Shown piece after piece: positions 3,129 through 29,420 of a stretch of DNA of 64,000 nt. This DNA comes from Escherichia coli O157:H7 (GTDB lineage Bacteria; Pseudomonadota; Gammaproteobacteria; Enterobacterales; Enterobacteriaceae), in assembly GCF_013167455.1 (NCBI RefSeq), contig NZ_CP038328.1; one strand, 5' to 3'. Both the position numbers and the translations under genes were made by a program. The notes below the pieces were generated by a model. That model was not told the origin of the DNA. It saw nothing but the letters and a program-made list of their open reading frames with translations, and made no database searches. How positions within the stretch are numbered: the first letter of the stretch is position 1; every line of letters starts with the position of its first letter.

Positions 3129-3132
<4 letters not shown>

Positions 3133-5647: not shown

Positions 5648-5685
5648 GGTAACCCCAATGGATTAAAATAGATGGCGGAAATAAG

Positions 5686-5713
5686 TATGACGATTTTAAG
5701 TATTCGTCATACT
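5686..5713 (-). promoter_or_regulatory. NikR operator in the nikA promoter (GTATGA-N16-TCATAC)
   Basis: Perfect dyad GTATGA(5686..5691)-16 nt-TCATAC(5708..5713), about 40 bp upstream of the nikA start; matches the established NikR operator architecture. Confidence 0.8.
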
Positions 5714-5757
5714 GATTACCTGTTCTGGATCAATAGATGGGCAGTCGGGTGGGCGGA

Positions 5758-6345: not shown

Positions 6346-6346
6346 A

Positions 6347-13409: not shown

Positions 13410-13828
13410 GGTTTGACTCCCATGCGTTCAAACAGAATATCGGGGCTGACAAAGCACAGTTCGCGACTTTGCTCGTCGACCGCGACCTGAATGGTGTATC
13501 CGGTGGTGGCGCGTTTGCCCGTTTCGGCATCGAAAATCTGATAGCCAATCCGCAGACGGTTTTCGAACTCTTCGATATGCGCACGCACGCGGATGCGTTG
13601 CTCAAAGGTGAGGGCGTGGCGATATTTCACCCGCGCATCGACCACTGGCCACAAATAACCGGACTCTTTCATTTGCCGATAGCCGTAATTGAACTGGTTG
13701 AGCAGCGCCTCGCGAGCCACTTCAAAGTAGCGAAAATAGTTACCGTGCCAGGCCACGCCCATCATATCGACGTCGTGAAAGGGAATGGTCAGCTCGACTT
13801 CTGCGGTAAATCGGGGATCGTTCAGCAC
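13406..13828 (-). CDS. apeK: Hotdog-fold acyl-CoA/acyl-ACP thioesterase (4HBT-like)
   Basis: 140-aa small thioesterase-sized ORF, translationally coupled (ATGA overlap) to the next gene. Confidence 0.65.
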   Translation of the reverse strand: MLNDPRFTAEVELTIPFHDVDMMGVAWHGNYFRYFEVAREALLNQFNYGYRQMKESGYLWPVVDARVKYRHALTFEQRIRVRAHIEEFENRLRIGYQIFDAETGKRATTGYTIQVAVDEQSRELCFVSPDILFERMGVKP

Positions 13829-13831
13829 CCT

Positions 13832-15508
13832 TTACTCCTTGTCCTGAATTTCCGGCAGTTGCCAGAAATCGAAAAAATTAAACCAGTCGAGAGGCGACTG
13901 GAGCGCGTAATGTTCCAGACGCGCGGCGTAATGATCGATAGCGTTTTGCAGCGCCTGTTGGCGTTCGCCGCGCGGCAGCTGCAGTGGGTCGGCAAAGCTT
14001 TCGCAGTGAATATGCAGCTTGCCGTGCTGGCGCAGGGCGAAAATCAGATTCACCGGGCAGCGCAAAATAGAGGCGAGAATAAACGGCCCCTGTGGGAAAG
14101 GCGCAGGCTGGCCCATAAACGAACTCCAGCAGACGCGCCAGTCGCCGCCGCGTTGCGGGTTGACGGCGATGCGGTCACCGACAATCGCCACCCATTCGCC
14201 GTTATCCAGCTTCTCTTTCAGCAGGATGGCGGTTTCTGGGCCGATATCTGTTACCGGCATCAGGTTAATGCCTGCCTGAGGAGCCATCTCCTGCATTATC
14301 TGTTTAAAGCGTTGGGCGTTTTCGCTAAACACCAGCGCGTTAATGGTTTTGTAGCCCTGAATTTTTGCCAGCGCCCGGCACACTTCCACATCGCCAAGAT
14401 GCGAGGCCAGCAGCAATTTGCCGCGCGGATCGCGGACGTCAAGCGCTGCTTCTGCGCCTGGCGCAAACAGCACATCACGCCCTGGTTGTAGCTCGCCGCG
14501 CCAGCTGGCGATTTTGTCGAGCATGGCATTACCGAAACGTAGAAAGTGCTGATAGCTGTTGAGTTTTGCCGCCTGTGGTTGATGCTGTCGTACACGGGCG
14601 AGCCAGTCTTGCGACGCTTTGCGCGCACGAGAAGCAGTGAGCCAGTAGACGCCCACCACCGGGTAAAGCAGCGCGCTAAACGCCGTTCTTCCCAGCAGAC
14701 GCCAGACCAGCAGCATCAGGCGCATTCCCCATAATCCTTTCACTTCACTCTGCCGCGCCCAGTGGCAGGAAGAGCGGCGCATCAGCAGTGAAGGAATACG
14801 CGGCAACATGCCGAAAAACAGACGCGTGTGCATGAGCGAGATGCGGACGTTATCTTTCAGGGCATCAAAATGCGAAAGCCCGTCCAGTGGATAGGTGACG
14901 CGGGTCGGCACGAAATAGCTGGTATTTCCCTGCCAGTAGAGGCGCACCATCACTTCGGTGTCGAAATCCATCCGCTTGCCGATGGTGGCGTGTTTTGCCA
15001 GTTGCAGCGTTGGCGCAACCGGATAAACGCGAAAACCGCACATGCTGTCTTTCAGTTGCAGGGAGAGCGTTTCGATCCATACCCAGACGTGGGTGACCCA
15101 GCGCCCGTAAAGCCGTGAGCGGGGGATGGAGTCATCGTAAATTGGCTGGCCGGAGATCAGTGCCGCAGGTTGTTGTTCAGCGAGAGCCAGCAGTTTAGGG
15201 ATATCTTCAATCGCGTGCTGACCGTCAGCATCCACCTGCACCGCATGGCTGAACCCTGCGTCTGCCGCTGCCTGTAAGCCACGCATCACCGCCGCGCCTT
15301 TGCCTGCGTTTTCTGCCAGGCGAATTAAGGTCACGCCAGGCTGTTCGGCAAGCAGACTGTCCAGTTGCTGTTGTGTGGTGGCATCGCTGCCGTCATCCAC
15401 CACAATACAGGGCAGATTAAATGGCTTAAGACGCGCCAGCACGCCCGGCATCATCGCGCCGTGGTTGTAGCAGGGTATCAACACGCAGGGAGAAAAGTTT
15501 ACCGACAT
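13832..15508 (-). CDS. apeJ: Bifunctional family-2 glycosyltransferase / acyltransferase
   Basis: 558 aa; N-terminal GT2 motif VVDDGSD, followed by a membrane segment and a C-terminal acyltransferase-like domain. Confidence 0.7.
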   Translation of the reverse strand: MSVNFSPCVLIPCYNHGAMMPGVLARLKPFNLPCIVVDDGSDATTQQQLDSLLAEQPGVTLIRLAENAGKGAAVMRGLQAAADAGFSHAVQVDADGQHAIEDIPKLLALAEQQPAALISGQPIYDDSIPRSRLYGRWVTHVWVWIETLSLQLKDSMCGFRVYPVAPTLQLAKHATIGKRMDFDTEVMVRLYWQGNTSYFVPTRVTYPLDGLSHFDALKDNVRISLMHTRLFFGMLPRIPSLLMRRSSCHWARQSEVKGLWGMRLMLLVWRLLGRTAFSALLYPVVGVYWLTASRARKASQDWLARVRQHQPQAAKLNSYQHFLRFGNAMLDKIASWRGELQPGRDVLFAPGAEAALDVRDPRGKLLLASHLGDVEVCRALAKIQGYKTINALVFSENAQRFKQIMQEMAPQAGINLMPVTDIGPETAILLKEKLDNGEWVAIVGDRIAVNPQRGGDWRVCWSSFMGQPAPFPQGPFILASILRCPVNLIFALRQHGKLHIHCESFADPLQLPRGERQQALQNAIDHYAARLEHYALQSPLDWFNFFDFWQLPEIQDKE

Positions 15509-15852
15509 AGGCGGATCTTCCCGCTACTGGCGGTGTGGCGGGCGTCACCGTCGTGACGCTGATAGCTAAAGCTCAGAATCTGGCGTTCTTCCTGCCAGTT
15601 AAGCGCGAGCGTGACGCGGTTTTCCGGCAGCAACGGAGACTGGAATTTTATGTTCTGAATGGAGTGAAAACGCCAGCCAGGCGCGAGCAGATTGAGCGCG
15701 TAGCTCATCGCCCAGTCGATTTGCGCAACTCCTGGGAGTAATGGTTGCACGGCAAAATGACCGCGAAACCAGAACAGATCCGCCCTGAGATGCAGAACAA
15801 TTTCAAGGTGATTCGTTTGTGCCTGATGGCGCTCGATTTCATGGGGCTTCAT
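15499..15852 (-). CDS. apeI: Hotdog-fold dehydratase (second DH subunit)
   Basis: Start set at the ATG at 15852, which has an AGGAG ribosome-binding site 9 nt upstream, giving 117 aa. The ORF track extends it to 15882. Confidence 0.65.
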   Translation of the reverse strand: MKPHEIERHQAQTNHLEIVLHLRADLFWFRGHFAVQPLLPGVAQIDWAMSYALNLLAPGWRFHSIQNIKFQSPLLPENRVTLALNWQEERQILSFSYQRHDGDARHTASSGKIRLCR

Positions 15853-17200
15853 GAAATAACTCCTGTAATTGCGCATAGACACGCTTGTTCATACTGTTTA
15901 CTGGCATTTCATCAATAACGCGCCAGTAACGCGGAATAGCAACTGGCTCCAGCGTCGGGCGCAGTAAACGCCGCCAGGTCATTTCCTGGCTATGCCCGCC
16001 GCCGTTCTGCCATTGCAGATGAGCTTCGTCATCCAGCACCAGCAAAACGCCTATGCTCTGACGCCCGCCGCGCGTAACGGGAACTGCCGCCGCCTCGCGA
16101 ATGCCGTCCAGCGCCAGTAGACGTTGTTCTACTTCCTGGAGTGAAATACGTTTTTCTTCAATCTTAACGATGCGCCCACGACGCCCCATCAGATGGAACT
16201 GACCATCTTCGCTAAACTGTAAGATATCGTCGAGTAACATGCCGTTATCTTCCGCTATCAGCGGTGAAAAGAGGCGAAAGGCATCGCCTTCGGCCTGGAA
16301 CTGCATACCTGGGAGGGGTAGCCAGCGGCGTTGCTCTTGTTCGCGGTAGCGCCAGGCGATGACGCCAGTTTCCGTGCTGCCGTAGATTTCATCAGGCCAG
16401 ACGCGCAGCCAGCTCGCGGTATGTTGTACATCCTGCCACGGCAGCTCACCGCCAGCAGAGAGAAGCACCTGAACGGGTGGCGGAGAAAGCTGGGTATCCA
16501 GGCGCTTCAAAAATGCCGGGCTGCTGATGAAGATATAGCGATGCTGATGACTCAACGCGGCAAACTGTTCGACATACCAGAGCATGGCGGCGTGCAGCGG
16601 TAATCCCAACGCCATGGGCAGGAAAACGCGAAAAGTCAGGCCGTACAAATGCTGCGGCAATACGGAACCGACGACACGACAACCCGCCAGACGTGCGCCT
16701 AATCGTTCAGCCAGCAGTTCTGCTTCACGATCCAGCAAATGAACAGGTTTAATCGCCCGTTTCGGCTGTCCCGTGGAACCGGAGGTAAACAGCTCGATAA
16801 AAGCCTCTGGCGCTATAGCGGCAAAGGTGAAGGATTGTGTCGCGATTTGTGGAGAACTTGCTACCAACAGCAATGAACCTTGCCAGTTAAGTTCGCTGTC
16901 GCTAAGCACACCATCAAAAAGTTCACGTTGCTCGTTAAGCTGGATAACACGGTTATGCCCCGGAAGCACCGGCGTTTTTCCGGCGTGTAGCGTGGCGAGC
17001 AGGGCAACGATAAACAGATAGCTGTTCTCAAAGCACAGCGCCCAGCGTTCACCCGGCTGTTGCTGCAAGCGGCAGATAAGTTGCGCGACATCGTGACGCA
17101 AATCGCCCAGCGTCCAGGTACTTTCGTTCAGCCACGCAATGGGTGTGTCATCAGGGCGTGGCGCAGTCAGCCAGCGTGCAAGCGGTAAGGTCTGCTTCAT
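15839..17200 (-). CDS. apeH: AMP-dependent synthetase/ligase (adenylating starter-unit ligase, acyl-ACP synthetase-like)
   Basis: AMP-binding motif TSGSTGQPK; start placed at the ATG at 17200, which forms an ATGA overlap with the upstream gene's stop, giving 453 aa. Confidence 0.8.
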   Translation of the reverse strand: MKQTLPLARWLTAPRPDDTPIAWLNESTWTLGDLRHDVAQLICRLQQQPGERWALCFENSYLFIVALLATLHAGKTPVLPGHNRVIQLNEQRELFDGVLSDSELNWQGSLLLVASSPQIATQSFTFAAIAPEAFIELFTSGSTGQPKRAIKPVHLLDREAELLAERLGARLAGCRVVGSVLPQHLYGLTFRVFLPMALGLPLHAAMLWYVEQFAALSHQHRYIFISSPAFLKRLDTQLSPPPVQVLLSAGGELPWQDVQHTASWLRVWPDEIYGSTETGVIAWRYREQEQRRWLPLPGMQFQAEGDAFRLFSPLIAEDNGMLLDDILQFSEDGQFHLMGRRGRIVKIEEKRISLQEVEQRLLALDGIREAAAVPVTRGGRQSIGVLLVLDDEAHLQWQNGGGHSQEMTWRRLLRPTLEPVAIPRYWRVIDEMPVNSMNKRVYAQLQELFHEAP

Positions 17201-17778
17201 GCGCGATCTCTTTTCATCACCTGACGGCGCAGCAGCCATTCACCAGCCATTAACGTCCCCATCAACAAATAAGCAATCATGCCGTTCCAGGCGGTCCATA
17301 ACGACATATCGGCATAAAGCGCGGTAAAGAGGGCAATTCCACCGTTAATGATGAAAAAGCCGCACCAGATTTGCGTGACGTGGCGGGTATAGCGCACGCC
17401 CTTTTCCGGGAGGTCTGGCTCCTGCAACCGCGCCAGCCGCTCAACTATCGGCATTGCCGACCACAGCGAACCGCCAAAAACCGCCAGCATGACCGCGTTA
17501 ACCACTACCGGGTAAAACAGCAGTAGCTGGTGCGTTTTCAACATAAAGCTGGCGACACATAATGCGATGCCCACGACAGCGACGAGTTGCGTGACGGCTT
17601 GTAAAGGCCCCGCCTGGCGACGGGTCTGGCGCAGACGCAACAAAAGCAGCAACGCCATTAGCGGTAACAGCCAGTGCAGGCCGTTATGCGCTAAGCCAAA
17701 CCAAATCACAAACGGCCAGGCGAGCAGCAATAATCCAGTCAGCAGCTTAATCATCGGTAGCGAGCGAATGCCCGACAT
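17197..17778 (-). CDS. apeG: Integral membrane protein of the APE cluster
   Basis: 193 aa with about 5 predicted transmembrane helices. Confidence 0.6.
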   Translation of the reverse strand: MSGIRSLPMIKLLTGLLLLAWPFVIWFGLAHNGLHWLLPLMALLLLLRLRQTRRQAGPLQAVTQLVAVVGIALCVASFMLKTHQLLLFYPVVVNAVMLAVFGGSLWSAMPIVERLARLQEPDLPEKGVRYTRHVTQIWCGFFIINGGIALFTALYADMSLWTAWNGMIAYLLMGTLMAGEWLLRRQVMKRDRA

Positions 17779-17782
17779 CAGA

Positions 17783-18034
17783 TCAGGCTTCTTGTAGCAG
17801 GCGTTCTACAGCCTCGACGACATCCTGGACTGTACGCACTGCTTTAAACTCTTCCGGCTTGATTTTCTTACCGGTTTTCTTTTGCAGGTGCACAATCATG
17901 TCAACGGCGTCGATGCTGTCCAGTTCCAGATCTTCGTACAGGCGCGTTTCAGGTTTGATGTCCTGCGGATCGATTTCAAACAGCTTAACCAGCAGGGCTG
18001 AGACTTCCTGATAGACGGTTTGTTGTTCTGTCAT
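17783..18034 (-). CDS. apeF: Acyl carrier protein
   Basis: 83 aa; phosphopantetheine attachment motif LELDSIDAVDM; GAGGAA ribosome-binding site upstream. Confidence 0.85.
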   Translation of the reverse strand: MTEQQTVYQEVSALLVKLFEIDPQDIKPETRLYEDLELDSIDAVDMIVHLQKKTGKKIKPEEFKAVRTVQDVVEAVERLLQEA

Positions 18035-18045
18035 GATGGCTTTCC

Positions 18046-18303
18046 TCAGGCACGTTGCGCAGCAATGAAAGAGGCCAGAGTGGCGACGGAGAAAAAGTGC
18101 TGACGCATCTCTTCGCTTTCCGCAGAGAGCACGATGCCGTACTCATTTTTTACTGCCAGTCCCAGTTCCAGGGCATCGATAGAGTCCAGCCCTAAACCGT
18201 CGCCAAACAGCGGCGCGTCGGTATCGATATCATCAGGCGTCAACTCGTCCAGATTGAGGGTGCTGATGATGAGGTTTTTAATTTCCAGATAAAGCGCTTG
18301 CAT
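18046..18303 (-). CDS. apeE: Acyl carrier protein
   Basis: 85 aa; motif LGLDSIDALEL; AGGA ribosome-binding site upstream. Confidence 0.85.
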   Translation of the reverse strand: MQALYLEIKNLIISTLNLDELTPDDIDTDAPLFGDGLGLDSIDALELGLAVKNEYGIVLSAESEEMRQHFFSVATLASFIAAQRA

Positions 18304-19099
18304 TATTTATTCCTGAGAGAGGTAAACAACCTTGTTGTAATTGAAGCAAAAGATGCCGGTTTAACTGCCTTGCTGCCAGCGCCGGTTCTTGTGAAGTTGC
18401 ATCGTAAAATTTATTGATTTCAACCCGACCATGGACTGCAACCGTAAAAAACGGCCGGTCAGGTGGAACGTCATACCATTTACTTTGTTTATCCAGCAGA
18501 TGCTCGCTACAGCCGATTGTCACGATGCGTAAATCGCTGGCGCAGCGCACGGCAATATTCGCCGCCCCGCGCTGCAGCGTCATTTTTTCACCGGGCTTCG
18601 TTCGTGTGCCTTCGGGGAAAATCAGGATAGTGTCACCCTGTGCCAGTCGCTGTTGGCAGCGGGGTAACAGAGTTTCAGCTTCGCTGTTGATTAAATAATC
18701 TGTCGCCCGCACGACGCCGCCAAGAAAAGGATTTTTTAACAGCGCGCTTTTCACCAGGCAGTCAGTTTCTGGCATGACTGACGCCAGCAGCACGTAATCG
18801 ATCAGCGTGGGATGATTGGCTACGACGAGGCAACCGCGTTCCTGATGTAAGATTTCAGCGCCATCAATACGATAATCCAGTACGCCAAGCCCTTTCGCGA
18901 CAGTTAAAAACAGGCGAAAACTGGCGGCAATGCTGCGACGCGCCAAACGACGGCGGCGGGAAGTATCCCACACCAAAACTAACAATATGTTAAACCACAC
19001 GACAGAAAGCAGCAGGCCGCCGAGACCAAACAGGGCAAAACATAACCCGGTCATGACCAGTCGCCAGGTCCACTCCAGACGTGACATCAGCTTACTCAT
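18278..19099 (-). CDS. apeD: Lysophospholipid (PlsC-type) acyltransferase
   Basis: N-terminal membrane anchor and acyltransferase-sized body; start placed at the ATG at 19099 (ATGA coupling with the upstream stop), giving 273 aa. Confidence 0.7.
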   Translation of the reverse strand: MSKLMSRLEWTWRLVMTGLCFALFGLGGLLLSVVWFNILLVLVWDTSRRRRLARRSIAASFRLFLTVAKGLGVLDYRIDGAEILHQERGCLVVANHPTLIDYVLLASVMPETDCLVKSALLKNPFLGGVVRATDYLINSEAETLLPRCQQRLAQGDTILIFPEGTRTKPGEKMTLQRGAANIAVRCASDLRIVTIGCSEHLLDKQSKWYDVPPDRPFFTVAVHGRVEINKFYDATSQEPALAARQLNRHLLLQLQQGCLPLSGINNASALSGN

Positions 19100-19818
19100 C
19101 TGTGGCTCCAGCGCCATTGCACGCGCTCGCCAGGCAGTGAAAATGTGTCTACATTTTGTAAATAGTGCTGTAAAAACAACATGCTTTGCGGCAGTGTTGT
19201 TTCATTGCCCGCAATGGCTGACTGCGTTTCACATTGCCAGTCATCGCCAGCTTCAATCACCAGCGCGACGGCGTACGGCCAGGTCGGCATTTCTGATGGC
19301 AGTTGTGGGTGATAAAACTCGGGCAGGAAACCGTCAAAATCGACCATCAGCACGCGCTGGTATCCCGCTTGTAGCAGGCTAAGCACTTCACACAAACCTT
19401 GCTGGAAACTATCGCGACCAGCCGAAAGCGATGACGAAACGCTCGGCTGTTTGGCCGCAATGGTCAGGTTACCCACGGAAGAGTTGTGTACGGAGAGCGC
19501 GAAGTCCGTCGGAGAAAGCGCCTGTTCGGTTGCCAGTGCATGAACAATGCGGTAATTGCGCTCCAGTTCGCCATGACGACTGGTATACAAAACGGCGTCT
19601 GGTTGATGGCGGCGTAGCATTGCCAGACCGCATTCAACAGCCAGTTTGCTCCCGGAGCTGAGGCGGCGGGCGGTCATCATTGGCAGTTCACTTAATTTTG
19701 CCAACGGTGCTGTCGGGTCAATTGCCTGAGGCTGACGTGACCACTCCTGCCATTGCAGCGTTTCACTAAGTCCAGGCGCTCTTGCCTGCCAGTCGAGAAT
19801 GTTTAATGCAAATTTCAT
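19096..19818 (-). CDS. apeC: KS-like protein lacking the active-site Cys (chain-length-factor-like KS partner)
   Basis: Ketosynthase-like by cluster context, but no Cys/His/His triad is visible. Start ambiguous: ATG at 19818 (240 aa) or TTG at 19842 (248 aa). Confidence 0.6.
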   Translation of the reverse strand: MKFALNILDWQARAPGLSETLQWQEWSRQPQAIDPTAPLAKLSELPMMTARRLSSGSKLAVECGLAMLRRHQPDAVLYTSRHGELERNYRIVHALATEQALSPTDFALSVHNSSVGNLTIAAKQPSVSSSLSAGRDSFQQGLCEVLSLLQAGYQRVLMVDFDGFLPEFYHPQLPSEMPTWPYAVALVIEAGDDWQCETQSAIAGNETTLPQSMLFLQHYLQNVDTFSLPGERVQWRWSHR

Positions 19819-19858
19819 CAACGCGCGCCCGCGGTAAACCAAAATTATTAAGTGACGA

Positions 19859-20926
19859 TTATTTCTTTTGGCATATCAAAAGTGTATGCCCAACGCCTAA
19901 ATTATCGTGGCGCTCTGCTACCTGGAATCCTGCTTTATTCAGATAGTCGTAAAATTTCTCTGCACTATAGAAACGGCTGTTACCGTTTGCCATGCAGGTA
20001 AAATAAAGTGAGGACGCGTTCAGGCTAAACGATGCTGCTTCAAACCGCTGCGCATCCCAGAACAACTCCATGATGCAAACTTTTGCGCCAGGCTTCATTA
20101 CGCTGGCAATTTTGCTGAGTATGCTAATTATTTGTTCGGGTGAAAAACAGTCTAAAAATTGGCTCATCCACCAGATATCAGCCTCGCCCGGTAATGGGGC
20201 ATCGCTTAGCATATCCACCGCATGGAAATCTATGCGATCAGAAAAACCTGCATTCGCGATATTTTCTTTCGCTAGTACGATTTGTTGTGGCAGATCTAAT
20301 AACGTAACGGCGATGTTTTCATTGTATTTGCAGCAACGCAAAGCCCACTTACCCGTATTGCCGCCTACATCGTACAATGTTGTGGGGTTGTTGGCGAATA
20401 CATAAGGCAGTGCGGCGTTAAATGCGCCATCTGAATAGTAATGATCAAACGCAAACCAGCTTTCACGAGCGGCGTCTGGTAATTGCGAAAGTGCCGGATA
20501 TATCGTCGACCAGTCGCCAAATACTTTTAACCCGGAAGGTTTTCCTTCATTGAGTGAATCGGCGAGGAAGAAGAGCCCCTGGTAACAGACATCCTGGGTG
20601 AAATCCATATTCACGCGAGTCATAGTGTCATGCAGGAGGTAATGACCGATTTTCGCCAGGTAATAAATTCCCTCTTTACAGGTAATAATTCGCCCGCTTA
20701 AGCCCATATCTAACAGAACGCTGGTAGCATATTCGTTGATATGGCTATGTTCGGTGATATCAGCCAGCGTTGCGCCATGTTTGCCTTGCCGATCCAGATA
20801 TGAAAGTACACCCGCATTACGTAGGCAGAGTGCTGTTTGAAAAAGCATAGGGGCAAAGGCAATGCGTTGAGCTTCGGTAATCGCATCCAGTGCGCTAAGA
20901 GAATCCTGTTCGTACATGTTGGGCAC
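19859..20926 (-). CDS. apeB: Class I SAM-dependent O-methyltransferase
   Basis: 355 aa; SAM-binding motif LYDVGGNTG; first gene of the 17-gene block. Confidence 0.8.
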   Translation of the reverse strand: MPNMYEQDSLSALDAITEAQRIAFAPMLFQTALCLRNAGVLSYLDRQGKHGATLADITEHSHINEYATSVLLDMGLSGRIITCKEGIYYLAKIGHYLLHDTMTRVNMDFTQDVCYQGLFFLADSLNEGKPSGLKVFGDWSTIYPALSQLPDAARESWFAFDHYYSDGAFNAALPYVFANNPTTLYDVGGNTGKWALRCCKYNENIAVTLLDLPQQIVLAKENIANAGFSDRIDFHAVDMLSDAPLPGEADIWWMSQFLDCFSPEQIISILSKIASVMKPGAKVCIMELFWDAQRFEAASFSLNASSLYFTCMANGNSRFYSAEKFYDYLNKAGFQVAERHDNLGVGHTLLICQKK

Positions 20927-20985
20927 AACCTGTTAAGAGGGAATTAAATTATTATCGGACCGCAACGGCCCGACTTTAGGAAGAA

Positions 20986-21375
20986 TTATAAATCTGCGCC
21001 CGCTGACAAATTCAGTTGAATATCTTTGTCGAGATTGCGGACCCAGCGATTGTAGTTTTTATGAATTTGTCCGCCTGACGCTTGTAGGTTCTGGCTATTT
21101 TCATAATTGATATCGTAGCTGGATGCCGTGTAGTTAATGCGTATTTCCGCTGAATGATCGCGTGACTGTTGACGTGCTTTAATTATGCCTTGTCCGGCTT
21201 CGGACATAATCCATTTGCGTTCAACGCCAGCTTTCAGAATCGCTTTTTTCACTTGTTCCTGGGTATGACCAGCGCTGACGGTTGAGTGAACCTGATCAAT
21301 TGGCGCAGTACGCGCGCAACCTGCTAAAGCACCCACAACAGCAATAGCCGCAAACCATTTCATGTAATGTCTCAT
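20986..21375 (-). CDS. Small secreted lipoprotein, function unknown (possibly the first gene of the APE operon)
   Basis: 129 aa; signal peptide with lipobox LAGC; GGGG ribosome-binding site; sits between the AT-rich region and the methyltransferase gene. Confidence 0.55.
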   Translation of the reverse strand: MRHYMKWFAAIAVVGALAGCARTAPIDQVHSTVSAGHTQEQVKKAILKAGVERKWIMSEAGQGIIKARQQSRDHSAEIRINYTASSYDINYENSQNLQASGGQIHKNYNRWVRNLDKDIQLNLSAGADL

Positions 21376-21704
21376 TAGAACCCCATTAAAGTATTGTTTT
21401 TACGAGTAAAGCAAGTTTTAACTGTAATTGCTGGCATCACTATTCTTTATTTAGAGAAAAAATTACTTGTGAGATAAGTCAGTAAGTGCACATCAGAGTA
21501 AAAATCTCTGAAATGACTAAATTACTGCCAGCAGGGACCAACTATAAGTGAGTGAGAAAAATGAGGCAATAAAAATAACACAATGTTATCAGTGCATTCT
21601 TTGAGAAGGATTTAATCGCTATTCGGCGTTTATATATATTTGACTTAAGGAATGGTTTTTTTAAATTAATTTTCTGAATAATGTTTCATCATTTCCTCAA
21701 ATCA

Positions 21705-21735
21705 AATGGCCACTGTTAGATAAACGGTGGCCATT
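21705..21735 (-). terminator. Hairpin downstream of yhhT (9-bp perfect stem AATGGCCAC/GTGGCCATT)
   Basis: Inverted repeat directly after the yhhT stop, followed on the minus strand by a T-rich stretch. Confidence 0.45.
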
Positions 21736-21754
21736 GCCTGCTCAGGAGGTGCTA

Positions 21755-22804
21755 TTAACCCGGTAACCGACTTTTCGGTCTGCCCGGCCCCAGTAAAATC
21801 GCCAGTTTGCTGCCGCCTTTCGTCGTTTCCATCCAGATTTTACACACGCTGGTTAATGGCACCGAAAGTAGCATCCCTACCGGGCCGAGCAGCCATCCCC
21901 AAATTAACAATGAAAGAAATACCACCATGGTGGACATCCCCAGGCGATGGCCCATCATCCGTGGTTCTAAAATATTGCCGATGACCATATGGACCACTAA
22001 AAACAATGCGCCGACCAGAATACATTCGTAAACACCATTAAACAGCAGCACCTGAATCATTGGCGGTACGGCGGAAATTACCGCGCCGATATTGGGCACG
22101 TAGTTAAGCAAAAACGCCAGTACTGCCCACATCAGCGCAAACTGTACCCCCATCAGCTCCAGCCCCAGCCAGACGATGACACCCGTCCATAAACTGAGTA
22201 GCGTCTTTAACGCCAGATAATGCGAAACGCCTTTAAGTGCGCGGTGTAATCCCGCGATGTGAATCTGTGGGTTATTCAGCGCAAAACGCATTTTGTAAGG
22301 GACGTGGCGCACTTCAAACAGCATAAAAACTACGGTCATCACCAGCAAAAGCACGCTCGCCATTGCCCCGGAAAGCCCGGTCATTAGCGCTGTGGTGAAG
22401 GTAACCACTTTTTCCGAGTCCATCCGCTGCAGCATTCGCTCCGGCGACATATGCAAATTAAGAAAAGGCAACATCTCCTGCAATTTAAAAAGTTTGCGCG
22501 TCAGCTCCTTATTAAACTTCGGCAGCATAGAGATAAATTCGTTAAACGATGCCGCCAGTACGCCGACCAGCGCGGTTAGTGCGATCAGCATCACCACCAC
22601 TACAATCGTAATGGCAACGGGGCGTTGTACTCCCCGACGAATAAACCAGGTGACGAGCGGGTTGAGGACGATGGCAAAAAACAGCGCCAGTAACAGCTGC
22701 ACAATGATATCTGCCGCTGCGTGAATGCCCGCGAGGATCACTACCAGCGAGGCCAGCTTGAGCAGAATGTGCATGCCCGTTTTATCGGGTTGAGGGGTTT
22801 CCAT
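21755..22804 (-). CDS. yhhT: AI-2E-family inner-membrane transporter YhhT
   Basis: Start at the internal ATG (METPQPDKTGMH...) gives 349 aa matching YhhT. Confidence 0.88.
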   Translation of the reverse strand: METPQPDKTGMHILLKLASLVVILAGIHAAADIIVQLLLALFFAIVLNPLVTWFIRRGVQRPVAITIVVVVMLIALTALVGVLAASFNEFISMLPKFNKELTRKLFKLQEMLPFLNLHMSPERMLQRMDSEKVVTFTTALMTGLSGAMASVLLLVMTVVFMLFEVRHVPYKMRFALNNPQIHIAGLHRALKGVSHYLALKTLLSLWTGVIVWLGLELMGVQFALMWAVLAFLLNYVPNIGAVISAVPPMIQVLLFNGVYECILVGALFLVVHMVIGNILEPRMMGHRLGMSTMVVFLSLLIWGWLLGPVGMLLSVPLTSVCKIWMETTKGGSKLAILLGPGRPKSRLPG

Positions 22805-22935
22805 TGGGGCTTCCTTGTGACTTTTTGTATTAAGTGTAGCGGGAGTCACGACGGCAATATTCTGATTCTTACTGCTGATTTTCACGTCAGCACGTGGTAA
22901 AAATGAAACACTGTTGTAAAAATGTGGTGATCCTC

Positions 22936-24153
22936 ATGCCCGAACCCGTAGCCGAACCCGCGCTAAACGGATTGCGCCTGAATTTGCGCATTCTCTCCAT
23001 TGTCATGTTTAACTTCGCCAGCTACCTCACCATCGGGTTGCCGCTCGCTGTATTACCGGGCTATGTCCATGATGTGATGGGCTTTAGCGCTTTCTGGGCA
23101 GGATTGGTTATCAGCCTGCAATATTTCGCCACCTTGCTGAGCCGTCCTCATGCCGGACGTTACGCCGATTTGCTGGGCCCCAAAAAGATTGTCGTCTTCG
23201 GTTTATGCGGCTGCTTTTTGAGCGGTCTGGGATATCTGACGGCAGGATTAACCGCCAGTCTGCCCGTCATCAGCCTGTTATTACTTTGCCTGGGACGCGT
23301 CATCCTTGGGATTGGGCAAAGTTTTGCCGGAACGGGATCGACCCTGTGGGGTGTTGGCGTGGTTGGCTCGCTGCATATCGGGCGGGTGATTTCGTGGAAC
23401 GGCATTGTCACTTACGGGGCGATGGCGATGGGTGCGCCGTTAGGCGTCGTGTTTTATCACTGGGGCGGCTTGCAGGCGTTAGCGTTAATTATTATGGGCG
23501 TGGCGCTGGTGGCCATTTTGTTGGCGATCCCGCGTCCGACGGTAAAAGCCAGTAAAGGCAAACCGCTGCCGTTTCGCGCGGTGCTTGGGCGCGTCTGGCT
23601 GTACGGTATGGCGCTGGCACTGGCTTCCGCCGGATTTGGCGTCATCGCCACCTTTATCACGCTGTTTTATGACGTTAAAGGTTGGGGCGGTGCGGCTTTC
23701 GCGCTGACGCTGTTTAGCTGTGCGTTTGTCGGTACGCGTTTGTTATTCCCTAACGGCATTAACCGTATCGGCGGCTTAAACGTAGCGATGATTTGCTTTA
23801 GCGTTGAGATAATCGGCCTGCTACTGGTTGGCGTGGCGACTATGCCGTGGATGGCGAAAATCGGCGTCTTACTGGCGGGGGCCGGGTTTTCGCTGGTGTT
23901 CCCGGCATTGGGTGTAGTGGCGGTAAAAGCGGTTCCGCAGCAAAATCAGGGGGCGGCGCTGGCAACCTACACCGTATTTATGGATTTATCGCTTGGCGTG
24001 ACCGGACCACTGGCTGGGCTGGTGATGAGTTGGGCGGGCGTACCGGTGATTTATCTGGCGGCGGCGGGACTGGTCGCAATCGCGTTATTACTGACGTGGC
24101 GATTAAAAAAACGGCCTCCGGAACACGTCCCTGAGGCCGCCTCATCATCTTAA
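22936..24153 (+). CDS. yhhS: MFS transporter YhhS
   Basis: Start at MPEPVAEPALNG gives 405 aa; 12-TM MFS topology; divergent from yhhT. Confidence 0.88.
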   Translation: MPEPVAEPALNGLRLNLRILSIVMFNFASYLTIGLPLAVLPGYVHDVMGFSAFWAGLVISLQYFATLLSRPHAGRYADLLGPKKIVVFGLCGCFLSGLGYLTAGLTASLPVISLLLLCLGRVILGIGQSFAGTGSTLWGVGVVGSLHIGRVISWNGIVTYGAMAMGAPLGVVFYHWGGLQALALIIMGVALVAILLAIPRPTVKASKGKPLPFRAVLGRVWLYGMALALASAGFGVIATFITLFYDVKGWGGAAFALTLFSCAFVGTRLLFPNGINRIGGLNVAMICFSVEIIGLLLVGVATMPWMAKIGVLLAGAGFSLVFPALGVVAVKAVPQQNQGAALATYTVFMDLSLGVTGPLAGLVMSWAGVPVIYLAAAGLVAIALLLTWRLKKRPPEHVPEAASSS

Positions 24154-24156
24154 AAC

Positions 24157-24714
24157 TTACTGAATAACCAGCGTATTAATGATGTTTTCTGCGGTGGTCT
24201 GCGCTTTTTGCTGATCGTCAGCTGGCAGAGTAATTTGCATGGTCAGCAGTTGATTACCCACGTTACCCAGAATAACGGAAGAGTACGCCGTCTGGCCTTT
24301 CGCGGAGATAATACTGTCTAACTGCTGCATTTTGTGACCTTTCAGCTCAATGGCTTTATTGGTGACCACTTGCAGCTGTGGATCGCGGCTACGTTGCTGA
24401 TCTTCCAGACGCTTCGCCAGCACCGCCAGATCTTCTTTCGGATCATCGCCCATGATGACGATGACTGCTTTCTGCCCGGTGGCGTCGGACCAGACATGCA
24501 TGTTATTGGCCTGCGTTCCCAGCTTACCGCTCTGGTCGGTCATATCCGCTGGCAGCGAGAAACTTAACTTGCCATCAAGCAGGTTGACGGGATTCCCGGT
24601 AGCGTTACTTTCCGCGACCGAACCCTGCGCCGTAGCGTTAGTGTCTTTATCATCACAGGCCGCAAGCCCCATAACCAGCAGGCCAATTCCGACATATTTA
24701 ACCAGATTGCGCAT
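24157..24714 (-). CDS. dcrB: Periplasmic lipoprotein DcrB
   Basis: Start at [20 protein letters not shown] gives 185 aa with lipobox LAAC. Confidence 0.85.
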
Positions 24715-24786
24715 TGACTTCTTCCTTTCGATAAACGGCCATAACGGCTCATTCATCCATCTTATCACAACTCTGATAACGAACCT

Positions 24787-25452
24787 TTAACTCGCCTGCA
24801 AAGCGTTGATTTCGGATTTATCTGCCAGTCTTTTCAACAGCATATTGAGTAATACGCCATACATTGGCAGGAAGAAAACGATACTGATTAACACTTTGAA
24901 ACAGTAATCGACCAGCGCGATTTCCATCCAGTGTTCAGCCATAAAGGCATCCGGGCTACGCCAGAAGGCAATGAAGAAAAAGGCCAGCGTGTCGCTGACG
25001 TTACCGAACAGTGTGGACGCTGTCGGTGCCAGCCACCAGCGGCGACTCTGACGCAGGCGGTTAAAAACGTGCACGTCGAGGATCTGTCCCAGCGCGTAGG
25101 CCATGAAACTGGCGGTGGCGATACGGGCGACAAACAGGTTGAAGTGGGAGAGTGCGCCGAATCCCTGCCATGAACCCATATAGAATAGCGACGAGATGAC
25201 GTAGGAGATCAGCAATGCCGGGATCATCACCGCAAAGATGATACGACGGGCCAGCGGTGCGCCAAAAATACGTACGGTCAGGTCGGTAGCGAGAAAGATA
25301 AACGGAAAGCTAAACGCGCCCCAGGTGGTATGGAAACCAAAAATGGAGACGGGAAGCTGAACCAGATAGTTACTGGAGGTGATCACCAGCAGATGAAATA
25401 ACGATAACCAGAACAACGCCTTATAGCGTTGAGTTTGCGAGAAAACGTTCAT
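24787..25452 (-). CDS. yhhQ: Queuosine-precursor transporter YhhQ
   Basis: 221-aa polytopic membrane protein matching YhhQ. Confidence 0.88.
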   Translation of the reverse strand: MNVFSQTQRYKALFWLSLFHLLVITSSNYLVQLPVSIFGFHTTWGAFSFPFIFLATDLTVRIFGAPLARRIIFAVMIPALLISYVISSLFYMGSWQGFGALSHFNLFVARIATASFMAYALGQILDVHVFNRLRQSRRWWLAPTASTLFGNVSDTLAFFFIAFWRSPDAFMAEHWMEIALVDYCFKVLISIVFFLPMYGVLLNMLLKRLADKSEINALQAS

Positions 25453-25672
25453 ATTGTACCTTTTTGATTAACCATTGGGGTGAGGGAACCCAATACGTAC
25501 GACACGTCTGTTACCTTAACATAATAACGTGCTTACCCTTTTTTCGAGCCGCCGCATGATACTGCTTTACGTTGACAATGCAATGGTTAATTTTCACGCA
25601 ATCGTTAACCTGGTTTGCTTACGGACTCACAGGGCGTAAACTAGCGCCGTTTTTTTATGTGATGAGAAGAAA

Positions 25673-25918
25673 ATGACCGATCTCTTTTCCAGCCCTGACC
25701 ACACACTCGACGCACTTGGCCTGCGCTGCCCGGAACCAGTCATGATGGTGCGCAAAACAGTGCGCAATATGCAGCCAGGTGAAACATTGCTGATTATTGC
25801 TGACGATCCGGCGACGACCCGCGATATCCCTGGGTTTTGTACCTTTATGGAACACGAACTGGTTGCCAAAGAGACGGATGGACTGCCTTATCGTTATTTG
25901 ATTCGTAAAGGCGGTTGA
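25673..25918 (+). CDS. tusA: Sulfurtransferase TusA
   Basis: 81 aa with the conserved LGLRCPEP active-site Cys motif. Confidence 0.92.
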
Positions 25919-25986
25919 CGGGGGCAGATTGGCTTCGATGCCGCCTTTTCCCCTCACCCTAACCCTCTCCCCAGAGGAGCGAGGGG

Positions 25987-26014
25987 ACCGATCGCGCTCA
26001 ATGTTGCGATCGGT
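25987..26014. terminator. Hairpin between convergent tusA and zntA (9-bp stem ACCGATCGC/GCGATCGGT)
   Basis: Perfect inverted repeat with a 10-nt loop between two convergent stops; only a weak T-run follows on the plus strand. Confidence 0.4.
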
Positions 26015-26019
26015 TTGCC

Positions 26020-28218
26020 TTATCTCCTGCGCAACAATCTTAACGCATTCGCTGTCACCAGCACCGTCGCACCCGTATCTGCCAGCACTGCCAGCCATAG
26101 TCCGGTCATCCCTAACAGCGTGGTGACGAGGAAGATCCCTTTCAGCCCCAGCGCAATAGTGATGTTCTGGCGGATATTGGCGTGAGTGGCGCGTGCCAGT
26201 TCAATCATTTGCACCAGACCGCGCAGGTGGTTATGGGTTAATGCTGCGTCGGCGGTTTCCAGCGCCACGTCTGTGCCGCTGCCCATTGCAATCCCGATGG
26301 CGGCAGCTTTCATCGCTGGCGCGTCGTTAATACCGTCACCGACCATCGCCAGCGGCGCATGTTGATTCAGCTCGGTCACCGCTTTGACTTTATCTTCCGG
26401 CAACAGGCCCGCTTTAAACTCCAGCCCCAGCTCCCCGGCAATTGCCGCCGCTGCGCGTGGATTATCGCCGGTGAGGATCACCCCTTTGACGCCCAGCGCG
26501 TTCAGTTCACTGATGGCAGTTGCAGCATCGGCGCGCAGGGTATCCTGCAATGCAATGATACCCAGCACGTCATCATTACGTACTACCAGCACAACCGTTT
26601 GCCCGGCGCTTTCCAGTTCATTAATCAAACCAGCAAATGCATCAGCGGGATGTTTCCCGGCAGCGCATATCAACACGCGCTCACCGTTAACCTGCGCTTC
26701 AATGCCAGACCCGACCAGCGCCCGCTGTGATTCGGCGGCGGGAATGGCGAGTGCAGCAACCTGTGCTTCGCGCACGATGGCCTGCGCCAGTGGATGCGTC
26801 GCGCCTTGCTCGACCGCCGCCGCCAGTGTCAGCAGTTCAGATTCACTAATACCCGTTGCCGGATGAATCGCGGTAACGCGCGGTTTACCGACGGTCAGCG
26901 TACCGGTTTTATCAAACGCCACCTGGGTAACACGACCCAGCTGTTCCAGCGCCGCTCCGCCTTTAATCAACGCCCCACGACGCGCTGCCGCCGCCAGCCC
27001 GGAGGTAATCGCCGCAGGCGTTGAGATAACTAACGCACACGGGCAGCCAATCAGCAGCAGCGTCAGCCCTTTATAAATCCACTCCTGCCAGCTGGTGGCA
27101 AACAGCAGCGGTGGCACCAGCGTCACCAGCAGAGCGACGGCCATAATCGCGGGCGTGTAAATACGGCTGAAACGGTCGATAAACCGCTCAATGGGTGCGC
27201 GACGCTCTTCGGCTTCTTCGATCAGTTTCAGAATCCGGTCAATGGCGCTGGCACCCGGTTCTGACAGCACTTCCAGCGTTACCAGACGGTCTACGCTGGT
27301 GGCTCCTGCAGGAACTTTATCGCCCGTTGCGCGCTCCACCGGAATAGATTCGCCGGTCAGGGCGCTTTCATCAAAACTGGCAAACGGTGAGAGCAGTTTA
27401 CCGTCGGCAGGCAAACGTCCACCTGCGGCGACTTCAATCACATCGCCAGGGCGCAGGCTGTTAATCGCCACCTCTTCCCGCTCACCGTTACGCAGGCGCG
27501 TGGCGGTTTCTGGTTTCAGCGCCATTAACGCGCTGACCTCTTGACGCGCGCGGCTGGCGGCCCAGCCTTCCAGTCGTTCACCAATCAAAAACAGCAGCAA
27601 CACCATCGCAGCTTCAGCCGTTGCGCCAATAAACAGTGCACCAATAGCGGCTACGCTCATTAAGGTTTCAATGGCGAAGTAGCTGCCGGATTTGATCAGC
27701 CGTAATGCCTGACGAGCAATCGGGTACAGCCCAACCAGCGTGGTCGCGATAAACGCCAGTTGCCCGAACGGATGATTAAATTGCTCCAAACCCCAGCTGA
27801 TTGCCATCATCACGATAAGCGTAATCAGCGGCAGATTCTCTTTCAGGCGCGATGCTTGTGGCTCGTCGGCGGCCTGCTCATCGCGCAGGGAATAGCCCGC
27901 TTTTTGCACCGCAGATTCAACTTGTGCACGGATGTCATTGTCGGCATCAACCACCAGTTTTTCGGTGGCGAACAACACCTGTACCTGATTCACGCCTGCA
28001 AGCTGGCGCACGGCATTTTCTACCTTGCGCGCACAGGCGGCGCAGTCCATGCCGCTGACTTTCCAGCTATAGCGGGTGCCGGAGACGTTTTCAGAGAGAG
28101 TTGGCGTGCTGGAACATGCGCCGTCGCAGCAACAGTCGTTGGCGTTCTGTACCGTGGTTAGCGGTTTGAACGCAGCAAATTGAGGGGCTTTCTTGCCGTG
28201 ATTGTCAGGAGTCGACAT
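26020..28218 (-). CDS. zntA: Zn/Cd/Pb-exporting P1B-type ATPase ZntA
   Basis: 732 aa; N-terminal metal-binding GMDCAAC, transmembrane CPC motif, phosphorylation motif DKTGTLT. Confidence 0.95.
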   Translation of the reverse strand: MSTPDNHGKKAPQFAAFKPLTTVQNANDCCCDGACSSTPTLSENVSGTRYSWKVSGMDCAACARKVENAVRQLAGVNQVQVLFATEKLVVDADNDIRAQVESAVQKAGYSLRDEQAADEPQASRLKENLPLITLIVMMAISWGLEQFNHPFGQLAFIATTLVGLYPIARQALRLIKSGSYFAIETLMSVAAIGALFIGATAEAAMVLLLFLIGERLEGWAASRARQEVSALMALKPETATRLRNGEREEVAINSLRPGDVIEVAAGGRLPADGKLLSPFASFDESALTGESIPVERATGDKVPAGATSVDRLVTLEVLSEPGASAIDRILKLIEEAEERRAPIERFIDRFSRIYTPAIMAVALLVTLVPPLLFATSWQEWIYKGLTLLLIGCPCALVISTPAAITSGLAAAARRGALIKGGAALEQLGRVTQVAFDKTGTLTVGKPRVTAIHPATGISESELLTLAAAVEQGATHPLAQAIVREAQVAALAIPAAESQRALVGSGIEAQVNGERVLICAAGKHPADAFAGLINELESAGQTVVLVVRNDDVLGIIALQDTLRADAATAISELNALGVKGVILTGDNPRAAAAIAGELGLEFKAGLLPEDKVKAVTELNQHAPLAMVGDGINDAPAMKAAAIGIAMGSGTDVALETADAALTHNHLRGLVQMIELARATHANIRQNITIALGLKGIFLVTTLLGMTGLWLAVLADTGATVLVTANALRLLRRR

Positions 28219-28253
28219 GGCATCCTCCGGTTAAGTTTTTTCTCATTAACCGA

Positions 28254-28285
28254 AGGATACACTCTGGAGTCGACTCCAGAGTCAA
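28254..28285 (-). promoter_or_regulatory. zntA promoter with ZntR (MerR-type) operator
   Basis: On the minus strand: TTGACT, a 20-bp spacer containing the perfect palindrome ACTCTGGAGTCGACTCCAGAGT (28261..28282), then TATCCT. Confidence 0.8.
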
Positions 28286-28291
28286 GTTTTA

Positions 28292-28918
28292 TCAGAGATA
28301 CAGCGAGCGGACGATGAGGAAGTGACCGGCAAAGTAGCAGGCCGCAGCAATCGCGTTGTCCGCACGGAAGCGTCGGCGATAGTGACTACCCAGCCAGACA
28401 AAGTTACTGATAAACAGCAACGAAGCGCCGACAAACGCAGAGAGTGCCGGAGCGGTCGGACGGAAGAACCACAGTTCACCTGCCAGCCACACCATCACCA
28501 GCGTCATGCCGATAAACGTGCAGATAGGCCAACGATACTCTTCCAGCCGCGTCCAGATAATCGCCAGTAACAGCGCACCCAGAACCAGCAACACCAGTGG
28601 CAGAGGCCAGAAGAAAGAGAGCGTCATCTGACTGGCGAAATAGATGGTGTACAGCAGGTGCGAGAGGAAAAACGCGCCGATGGCGTACATCAGACGTTGA
28701 CGTGGCAACAGGGTTAGCGCATCGCCCAGCAGTGAGGCGCACAGCCCTGCCAGCACCAGATAGCTAATGGCGTCGAACATCGGCGCTTGCCAGGCCAGTA
28801 ACAGCAGGAGAAGAAGGGTTAACGGTTTAAACACCCAGCGTTGCCAGGTTGGCCCACGATACGATGCATCCACAGATAGCCATGCGGAAAGACAGACAGC
28901 GATAAACGACCAAAGCAT
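28292..28918 (-). CDS. yhhN: YhhN-family membrane protein
   Basis: 208-aa polytopic membrane protein matching YhhN. Confidence 0.85.
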
Positions 28919-29058
28919 CTTAGTTCCTTGAATTCGTTATTTTTTCGTAAGCGGAATGCCTACGGTCTTGCTTCCAGTTTAGTGGCGAGGGTGGACGGAT
29001 GACAACACCATAACTGGCAGGGTATGCTTATTTCCGCATTTTCCGATGAGGGATAAAG

Positions 29059-29418
29059 ATGAGCAAACCACCTCTTTTCTTTATTGTTATCATTGGCTTA
29101 ATCATCGTCGCCGCATCGTTTCGTTTTATGCAACAGCGACGGGAAAAAGCTGATAATGATATGGCACCACTCCAGCAAAAGCTGGTGTTGGTGAGCAACA
29201 AGCGGGAAAAACCGATTAACGATCGCCGTTCGCGCCAGCAGGAAGTGACTCCGGCAGGCACCAGTATGCGCTATGAGGCAAGCTTCAAACCGCAAAGCGG
29301 AGGAATGGAGCAGACGTTTCGCCTCGACGCCCAGCAGTACCACGCCCTGACAGTGGGCGATAAAGGTACGCTGAGCTATAAAGGAACGCGCTTTGTTAGC
29401 TTTGTTGGCGAACAATAA
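29059..29418 (+). CDS. yhhM: DUF2500 membrane-anchored protein YhhM
   Basis: 119 aa with a single N-terminal transmembrane helix. Confidence 0.8.
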   Translation: MSKPPLFFIVIIGLIIVAASFRFMQQRREKADNDMAPLQQKLVLVSNKREKPINDRRSRQQEVTPAGTSMRYEASFKPQSGGMEQTFRLDAQQYHALTVGDKGTLSYKGTRFVSFVGEQ

Positions 29419-29420
29419 GG

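Follow-up and report, generated by a model that had tools for sequence, protein, structure and literature searches.

A probable 5' control region and the lipoprotein gene apeA of the aryl-polyene locus in Escherichia coli O157:H7

The aryl-polyene (APE) biosynthetic cluster of Escherichia coli O157:H7 appears in the literature under several names: O-island 138 in strain EDL933, S-loop 225 in strain Sakai, and ECs4324-4341. The Sakai genes have been termed an APE cluster in some reports and a fatty-acid cluster elsewhere, and K-12 is without them. In strain CFT073, the first gene of the APE cluster is c1204, which is apeA and encodes a lipoprotein (Johnston 2021, PMC8253772). An in-frame deletion of apeA in CFT073 keeps the pigment, while only immature APE acids are found and the final APE lipid is missing (PMC8253772). 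Native regulation of APE clusters is poorly known; the ape cluster of Xenorhabdus doucetiae is silent in laboratory culture (Grammbitter et al.; bioRxiv 10.1101/2020.12.19.423268). Here, we describe the region at positions 20,927 to 21,754 of a 64,000-nucleotide stretch of an O157:H7 genome (NCBI RefSeq assembly GCF_013167455.1, contig NZ_CP038328.1; the whole stretch is referred to as the window). This region very probably represents the 5' end of the APE biosynthetic locus of O157:H7.

At 100% identity, positions 20900..21800 match E. coli O157:H7 chromosomes in which the genes at this place are the lipoprotein gene, the methyltransferase gene and yhhT; the locus of the window is the same as O-island 138 / S-loop 225, also at 100% identity. 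The order of transcription on the minus strand is yhhT, a 379-bp spacer, a 129-aa open reading frame (ORF), a 68-nt spacer and the O-methyltransferase gene. The original prediction, which was made from the DNA letters alone, had described about 380 bp of AT-rich DNA ahead of a 129-aa lipoprotein ORF, directly upstream of a methyltransferase gene. This description was accurate, with a spacer of 379 bp at 33.2% GC, a gap of 68 nt between the two ORFs, and agreement between Pfam and the annotation on the methyltransferase. The lipoprotein gene is apeA and the methyltransferase gene is apeB. Beyond apeB, 16 genes make up a set that resembles type II polyketide and fatty-acid synthesis systems, and these are followed by acpT. 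The set encodes a chain-length factor, an acyltransferase, two carrier proteins, an acyl-CoA synthetase (the ApeH homologue), dehydratases and a glycosyltransferase, as well as a thioesterase, a LolA-like protein, an MMPL transporter, a DUF3261 protein, two ketosynthases and a ketoreductase. The acpT gene begins 2 nt past apeR and is also present in K-12. AcpT is reported to activate the homologues of ApeE and ApeF, the two carrier proteins of the O157 cluster (De Lay & Cronan 2006, as cited in later work).

The apeA gene and its place in the cluster have been described before, and the region is an ordinary and largely known one. The new elements here are the exact coordinates, a conserved stem-loop, a correction of the apeA start codon and the size of the uncurated ApeA family. 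Taken as a whole, the best explanation, in which we place considerable confidence, is that the region comprises apeA and the AT-rich control region of the APE locus, at an old, shared and non-mobile chromosomal site.

The CFT073-type cluster resembles the present locus in several respects. The two ApeA proteins belong to the same family, with 64% identity between the O157 protein and its counterpart in E. coli D8 (a strain with a cluster of the CFT073 type, next to cdiBA) and about 70% identity at the DNA level. Both are 129 aa long and have a lipobox. In both clusters, apeA is the first gene, directly upstream of apeB, and is followed by the same kind of stem-loop. However, the CFT073-type cluster is located beside cdiBA rather than between yhhT and acpT, its upstream region has no similarity to the one described here, and no acpT follows its apeR. 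Most genes of the two E. coli APE loci share 96-99% identity, but two blocks have low identity. The first covers apeA and the first ~220 nt of apeB (~70% at the DNA level; ~20700..21282), and the second covers apeG-apeH-apeI (54-85%; ~15550..17800). Within either block, the difference between the two alleles is about as large as that separating each of them from the alleles of other genera. Judged from these alignments, the two loci are a recombination mosaic relative to each other.

A more distant counterpart is found in Xenorhabdus species other than X. doucetiae, in which an apeA gene (48-52% identical at the protein level) precedes apeB, with AT-rich DNA upstream and a hairpin downstream. 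In contrast to O157, the Xenorhabdus cluster occupies another chromosomal site, and its hairpin has a U-tract and is terminator-like. The X. doucetiae cluster differs further, being natively silent and having been activated with a P_BAD promoter placed before apeB, not before apeA.

Table 1. Features of the apeA region and its surroundings. Positions are those of the window.
Feature	Position	Strand	Basis
yhhT, AI-2E family transporter, core gene upstream of the cluster	21755..22804	-	Pfam AI-2E_transport, E 5.9e-85; annotated in O157 and K-12
Stop codon TAA of yhhT, right-hand junction	21755..21757	-	
Terminator-like hairpin just past yhhT, AUGGCCAC...GUGGCCAU then UUUGAUUUG	21706..21734	-	RNA fold
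AT-rich intergenic region, presumed regulatory region of apeA and the ape genes, 379 bp, 33% GC	21376..21754	-	
Perfect palindrome ATAACA-TTG-TGTTAT, candidate regulator site, abutting the candidate -35 element	21575..21589	-	Read from the sequence
Candidate sigma-70 promoter, TTGCCT-17 nt-TATAGT	21541..21569	-	9/12 positions
Ribosome-binding site of apeA, GGGG	21381..21384	-	
apeA, 129-aa prolipoprotein, lipobox LAGC, Cys20, Ala at +2	20986..21375	-	ORF
Conserved 9-bp GC-rich stem-loop, GUCGGGCCG-UUG-CGGUCCGAU	20954..20974	-	Fold and covariation
apeB, O-methyltransferase, second gene of the cluster	19859..20917	-	Pfam Methyltransf_2, E 6.7e-18, and dimerisation domain; annotated methyltransferase
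acpT, 4'-phosphopantetheinyl transferase, conserved last gene of the locus	5758..6345	-	Pfam ACPS; annotated acpT
Segment missing from K-12 (apeA to apeR and the AT-rich region), 15,393 bp, 18 annotated genes	6366..21758	-	BLAST against K-12

ApeA has the N-terminus of a lipoprotein, MRHYMKWFAAIAVVGALAGC, followed by ARTAP after the signal. The signal can be divided into a positively charged start, a hydrophobic core and a lipobox that fits the pattern [LVI][ASTVI][GAS]C (MRHYMK-WFAAIAVVGA-LAGC). Cys20 is invariant among 17 aligned ApeA homologues, and the mean column identity of the family alignment is 80% (Enterobacterales). The annotation by PGAP starts apeA four codons later, at the second ATG, which leaves out 21364..21375 and gives a product of 125 aa. 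The first ATG and a GGAG-type ribosome-binding site 5-8 nt upstream of it are kept in ~47 aligned loci; Citrobacter has ATT in place of the second ATG. Since the upstream start and its ribosome-binding site are conserved and the second ATG is not, 129 aa is the better call, and a product of this length, as originally predicted, is likely on the basis of the aligned sequences.

A homology search placed the lipoprotein in the ApeA family of APE clusters. In an exhaustive profile search, the number of ApeA-like clusters (50% identity) was 3,297 at an E-value limit of 0.001 and 1,703 at the stricter limit of 1e-10. Some members of this family carry two tandem domains (~255 aa). ApeA itself has no match in Pfam and only four weak matches below the cut-offs in NCBIfam (Ala-zipper lipoprotein, BPTD_2524, LvhB7 and major outer membrane lipoprotein), and for ten distant relatives, too, the hits in the two databases were all weak and under threshold. 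A sequence-profile search of the PDB with ApeA returned nothing beyond one chance-level hit (E 0.81). The AlphaFold2 model of ApeA (pLDDT 80, pTM 0.73) has a small alpha/beta, helix-grip-like fold that resembles KA1 domains and the N-terminal domain of BamC. However, with a sequence identity of 5-12%, ApeA is not a member of either family at the sequence level, and the resemblance is one of fold only.

Under the "+2 rule" of the Lol pathway, a lipoprotein with Ala, and not Asp, at position +2 is sorted to the outer membrane. ApeA is predicted to be made as a prolipoprotein, acylated at Cys20 and taken to the outer membrane through the Lol pathway. The protein has been detected in the CFT073 proteome. 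We infer that ApeA acts late in the pathway, in the assembly or anchoring of the finished APE lipid, where its partners would be the LolA-like protein ApeL, the DUF3261 protein ApeN and the MMPL transporter ApeM. A role of this kind in export or anchoring would fit the published idea, the predicted outer-membrane location and the presence of LolA-like, DUF3261 and MMPL proteins in the cluster. Several points speak against such a specific role. The modeled fold, with its KA1 and BamC matches, tells nothing specific about a ligand. In addition, the apeA deletion gives the same intermediates as an apeB deletion (PMC8253772); because the two phenotypes are alike, a change in apeB expression could explain that of apeA. 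A further caveat is that X. doucetiae yielded the lipids once P_BAD stood ahead of apeB.

The gene neighborhoods of apeA were compared using an ApeA profile scan with one genome per species, which yielded 71 loci. The gene yhhT lies just upstream of apeA in 31 of these, and dcrB, with or without yhhS, takes this position in 6 more. The yhhT/dcrB-linked loci cover 11 genera (Escherichia, Citrobacter, Klebsiella, Superficieibacter, Lelliottia, Huaxiibacter, Leclercia, Enterobacter, Kosakonia, Pluralibacter and Raoultella). At the other end of the cluster, acpT is found 1-2 nt past apeR in Citrobacter rodentium and Leclercia, as in O157. apeA adjoins apeB or apeC in 72 of the 74 apeA loci examined, and APE-like clusters also contain the genes of two distant family members, P0320 and P0390, one of which immediately precedes an O-methyltransferase gene. 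In the group of Serratia proteamaculans, S. liquefaciens and S. grimesii, apeA is divergent from apeC and apeB is missing; therefore, apeA must have its own promoter and terminator there. The expectation that the lipoprotein gene is confined to cluster-bearing genomes fails in one lineage only, that of Tenebrionibacter, whose apeA (71% identical) has no APE gene within 10 kb. The linkage of apeA to APE genes is thus strong, but not absolute.

Two further arrangements were observed in this comparison. The lone apeA of Tenebrionibacter/Tenebrionicola is located between a gene for an Ail/Lom-type outer-membrane protein and a giant gene for a BapA-like adhesin. In Enterobacter asburiae, apeA to apeE are present and acpT is found at a distance of ~12 kb, with apeF onward not detected. 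The latter arrangement suggests that most of the cluster was lost by an internal deletion, which again spared acpT.

The stem-loop between apeA and apeB lies 11 nt past the apeA stop codon and ~37 nt before the apeB ATG, with a fold energy of -23.2 kcal/mol (z -2.44). It is homologous in 33 loci, with 96% of the cells of the alignment paired. These loci contain 15 double-change cells, compared to 4.3 in shuffles, and none of 500 shuffles scored as high. The tail of the stem-loop, AAUAAUUUAAUU, offers no good U-tract in E. coli, and a terminator scan gave no call. Other lineages have unrelated hairpins at the same place after apeA, several of which are followed by clear U-tracts (for example, loci L054, L062 and L035), and in some lineages the hairpin is a canonical terminator. 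A scan found no promoter-like site inside apeA.

Because the E. coli tail lacks a U-tract, the apeB ATG is ~37 nt away and apeA contains no promoter-like site, we favour read-through from apeA into apeB with attenuation or 3' stabilisation at the stem-loop. The stem-loop would act as a leaky terminator or as a 3' stabiliser, such that the apeA message would exceed that of the downstream genes. The spacer promoter would serve apeA and, by read-through, apeB-apeR-acpT, with apeA as the leading message of the unit and probably its most abundant one. The lipoprotein gene had been proposed as the possible first cistron of the operon. It is indeed the first gene of the cluster, in line with its adjacency to APE genes in nearly all loci, but the single-operon part of the proposal is in doubt, given the stem-loop that separates apeA from apeB, the canonical terminators at this place in some lineages and the divergent apeA of the S. 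proteamaculans group.

The strongest competitor to a shared transcription unit is a separate single-gene unit, in which apeA has its own terminator and is a conserved neighbor only loosely tied to APE synthesis. Such a unit would account for the presence of a hairpin after apeA in nearly every locus, with a clear U-tract in several lineages, and for the divergent apeA of the S. proteamaculans group and the lone apeA beside the adhesin gene in Tenebrionibacter. It would also agree with the pigment retained by the apeA deletion and with the X. doucetiae result, in which P_BAD before apeB sufficed for full APE lipids with apeA undriven (bioRxiv 10.1101/2020.12.19.423268). This last result counts against the shared unit, as does the consideration that the hairpin could be a full terminator, in which case apeB-apeR would need another promoter. 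However, the E. coli hairpin has no U-tract and leaves only ~37 nt to the apeB ATG, without a promoter-like site inside apeA, and the adjacency of apeA to APE genes extends from 72 of 74 loci to the distant APE-like clusters. The apeA mutant lacks the final APE lipid, which does not suit a gene only loosely tied to APE synthesis. In CFT073, the temperature response of apeA is like that of apeB-apeD, in a cluster whose expression is higher at 37 C than at 23 C. On balance, we consider a separate apeA unit unlikely, although it retains some weight, and retain read-through from apeA as the favoured arrangement in E. coli.

Two observations concern apeB itself. Its product matches the NCBIfam model of FlxJ-family methyltransferases with E 3.8e-142, yet the score of 473 bits is below the cut-off of 560. 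An 18-nt inverted repeat, complementary at 17 of 18 positions, pairs the apeB ribosome-binding region (20928..20945) with 20666..20683, ~245 nt downstream, in the codons for TCKEGI. The duplex energy is -32.8 kcal/mol (z -4.5 versus other windows of apeB); strong pairing is confined to Escherichia, with a weaker form in C. koseri. This repeat may hide the ribosome-binding site of apeB, or may be due to chance.

The borders of the locus were placed by alignment with K-12. BLAST homology to K-12 spans 3404..6365 and 21759..24800 of the window, and K-12 carries 38 bp in place of the cluster. The AT-rich region had been regarded as a border of the cluster, and the alignment agrees, with the junctions exactly at 6366 and 21758. 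The right junction is the stop of yhhT, where the last codon and stop are GGT TAA here versus GGA TGA in K-12, and K-12 homology starts one codon ahead of this stop. Because the homology resumes only at 21759, the AT-rich spacer is wholly cluster-specific. The left junction lies 19-21 nt before the acpT ATG and overlaps the stop codon of apeR. The flanks are 97-100% identical to K-12 up to both junctions; raised divergence of the flank beside the junction, which would be a sign of a long-linked polymorphism, was not seen in the comparison with K-12. The 35-nt spacer of K-12 was also considered as a leftover of island sequence, and this was rejected, as its best local match scores under the shuffle mean.

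The original prediction treated the cluster as an island whose insertion mechanism was unclear, with no integrase, tRNA or direct repeats visible. The searches agree with the second part of this statement: no tRNA was found in 1..30000 of the window, no integrase among 42 annotated features, and no direct or inverted repeat pairing the two junctions. The island itself did not hold up, since the cluster occupies the same place in many genera and has diverged together with yhhT. Relative to Escherichia sp. E1V33, identity is 92.0% for yhhT, 89.7% for the spacer, 94.6% for apeA and 95.3% for apeB. This similar divergence inside and outside the cluster implies that the cluster and its yhhT flank diverged together.

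Among 5426 complete E. coli genomes, 569 have the cluster, while 4856 share one contiguous empty-site allele of yhhT-acpT. The yhhT-acpT spacer of K-12 aligns with that of Salmonella enterica, both starting with TGA GGCGACA, and some Salmonella carry apeA. Since the two spacers are homologous and apeA occurs in some Salmonella, both states of the allele are old. From these alignments, the cluster-free allele appears to predate E. coli or to have been swapped between genera.

A horizontally acquired island, inserted between yhhT and acpT in the O157 lineage with the AT-rich segment as its foreign border, is improbable in light of these data. It would agree with the small fraction of E. coli genomes that have the cluster, with the sharp junctions and AT-rich border, and with the second, related APE cluster that lies beside cdiBA in a pathogenicity-island-like context in other E. 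coli strains. However, tRNA, integrase and flanking repeats are all lacking, and the cluster has a GC content (55.3%) close to that of the window (52.9%). It keeps one position across 11 genera, it has diverged from E1V33 to a similar degree as yhhT, and its flanks are nearly identical to K-12 right to the junctions. Furthermore, in three genera the 3' end of the cluster is joined to acpT, the activator of its carrier proteins. The data do not support a recent insertion in the O157 lineage; one ancient insertion may still have been the origin of the cluster-bearing allele, as an alternative to a deletion that gave the cluster-free one. The locus is an old shared chromosomal position in Enterobacteriaceae, not a mobile island. 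In the history that we propose, the cluster with acpT would be ancestral at the yhhT-acpT site, a loss of apeA-apeR long ago would have given the cluster-free allele that most E. coli carry, and the two alleles would now be exchanged, for which homologous recombination in the core genes on either side is enough. A history of descent, loss and homologous exchange accounts for the locus better than insertion does.

The spacer upstream of apeA stands out by its composition. Its GC content of 33.2% compares with 52.9% for the whole window and 55.3% for the cluster, and falls to 29.7% in the lowest 300-nt window. Windows of 300 nt at <=32% GC make up 2.1% of the 64 kb, and the spacer is the fourth most AT-rich spot. 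The AT-rich character is general: the 300 bp upstream of apeA are AT-rich in all 66 loci measured, whatever the neighboring gene (mean GC 0.35, versus 0.54 for the loci). AT-rich upstream regions of at least 300 bp are also found in Pantoea, in Xenorhabdus and in the cdiB-linked locus of E. coli, where the gene ahead of the region is unrelated or divergent. In the cdiBA-linked locus, the upstream gene cdiB is divergent from apeA; therefore, the promoter must be located in the spacer there. The most AT-rich part of the window lies elsewhere, at 51394..53143 (26-31% GC), between a 590-aa ORF (49407..51179) and an acetyltransferase-like ORF; it holds ORFs of 138 aa (membrane-like) and 303 aa.

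On the minus strand within 20800..21900, a scan found a single promoter-like match, the sigma-70-like sequence listed in Table 1. The predicted transcription start would be near 21534, with a 5' untranslated region (UTR) of ~160 nt. The match lies in a block of 53 nt (21534..21586) that is the longest without a difference between O157 and Escherichia sp. E1V33, in a spacer that differs at 39 of 379 positions; by a rough estimate, ~0.1 invariant blocks of this length are expected by chance. A T-rich stretch is found just upstream of the match. Position 21587 of the abutting palindrome differs in E1V33. The spacer had been named the probable promoter of the cluster. This is plausible in view of the one sigma-70-like match on the correct strand, but such matches are no commoner than in shuffled sequence (2 found, 2.2 expected). 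Other results also count against a promoter at this place. The spacer is not alignable between genera and shows no conserved promoter motif; upstream of apeA, only the ribosome-binding site and ~30 proximal nt align, and these only in close relatives. We found no mapped transcription start in the literature on the locus. The assignment of apeA transcription to the candidate promoter, which is predicted from the sequence, is accordingly a tentative one, with the balance leaning somewhat against this particular site.

Just past yhhT, in cluster-specific DNA, a terminator-like hairpin is predicted; the fold of 21670..21765 has an energy of -25.1 kcal/mol (z -2.25 versus shuffles). Its U-tract is poor, and a consensus terminator scan gave no call there. 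We propose that this weak terminator-like hairpin ends yhhT and that the ~330 bp of AT-rich regulatory DNA that follow would carry the apeA promoter. If the spacer instead had no promoter of its own and were silenced filler, the ape genes would be read through from yhhT. The common strand of yhhT and apeA, the poor and uncalled U-tract of the hairpin, and the chance-level promoter scan are all compatible with this arrangement. It is nevertheless very improbable, as AT-rich upstream DNA is kept in the Pantoea, Xenorhabdus and cdiB-linked loci, where the spacer must hold the promoter, and as the 53-nt invariant block combines a 9/12 promoter match with a T-rich stretch ahead of it. An unannotated small gene or regulatory RNA in the spacer is scarcely credible: at 379 bp, the spacer is long by E. 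coli standards and a 5' UTR of ~160 nt is predicted, but Rfam gave no match on 20800..21900 at a permissive threshold (E up to 1), the spacer wholly contains only ORFs of 20-27 aa and none of >=30 aa, and its sequence is unconserved between genera.

The AT-rich region that precedes apeA would most likely be a target of silencing by nucleoid proteins such as H-NS, as suggested by its composition and by published behavior. It resembles the H-NS-silenced accessory promoters of enterobacteria in being a long, strongly AT-rich upstream region beside genes of normal GC content. Conditional or silent expression of related clusters, seen in the temperature response of CFT073 and the silence of the X. 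doucetiae cluster, is a further similarity. The genes of O-island 138 are up 2-6 fold in an rpoS mutant in stationary phase. Unlike the silenced promoters, the spacer has no H-NS nucleation motif (TCGATAAATT, up to 2 mismatches), which argues against such silencing, and we found no H-NS binding data for the locus in the literature. Searches of the spacer against phages gave no match, and those against plasmids matched only an E. coli chromosome mislabelled as a plasmid.

These observations can be joined in a broader proposal, which we regard as speculative and, taken in its entirety, doubtful. ApeA would be the type of a large, uncurated lipoprotein family that lacks a Pfam or NCBIfam model and counts at least 3,297 clusters at 50% identity. 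These small proteins would have a lipid-facing fold like that of KA1 and the N-terminal domain of BamC, and would be the dedicated outer-membrane acceptor or anchor for APE lipids. The stem-loop after apeA would set the dose of ApeA above that of the enzymes. Whether apeA-apeR is present or absent between yhhT and acpT would reflect a single ancient polymorphism common to Escherichia and Salmonella, moved by homologous recombination.

For the mapping of promoters and transcripts in O157:H7, the region now offers clear targets, namely the exact border, the likely regulatory DNA, the corrected start of apeA and the apeA-apeB hairpin. These findings leave the current view of APE biology unchanged. 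With an old shared position, there is no insertion mechanism to be sought, and the position also accounts for the orphan AcpT of K-12.

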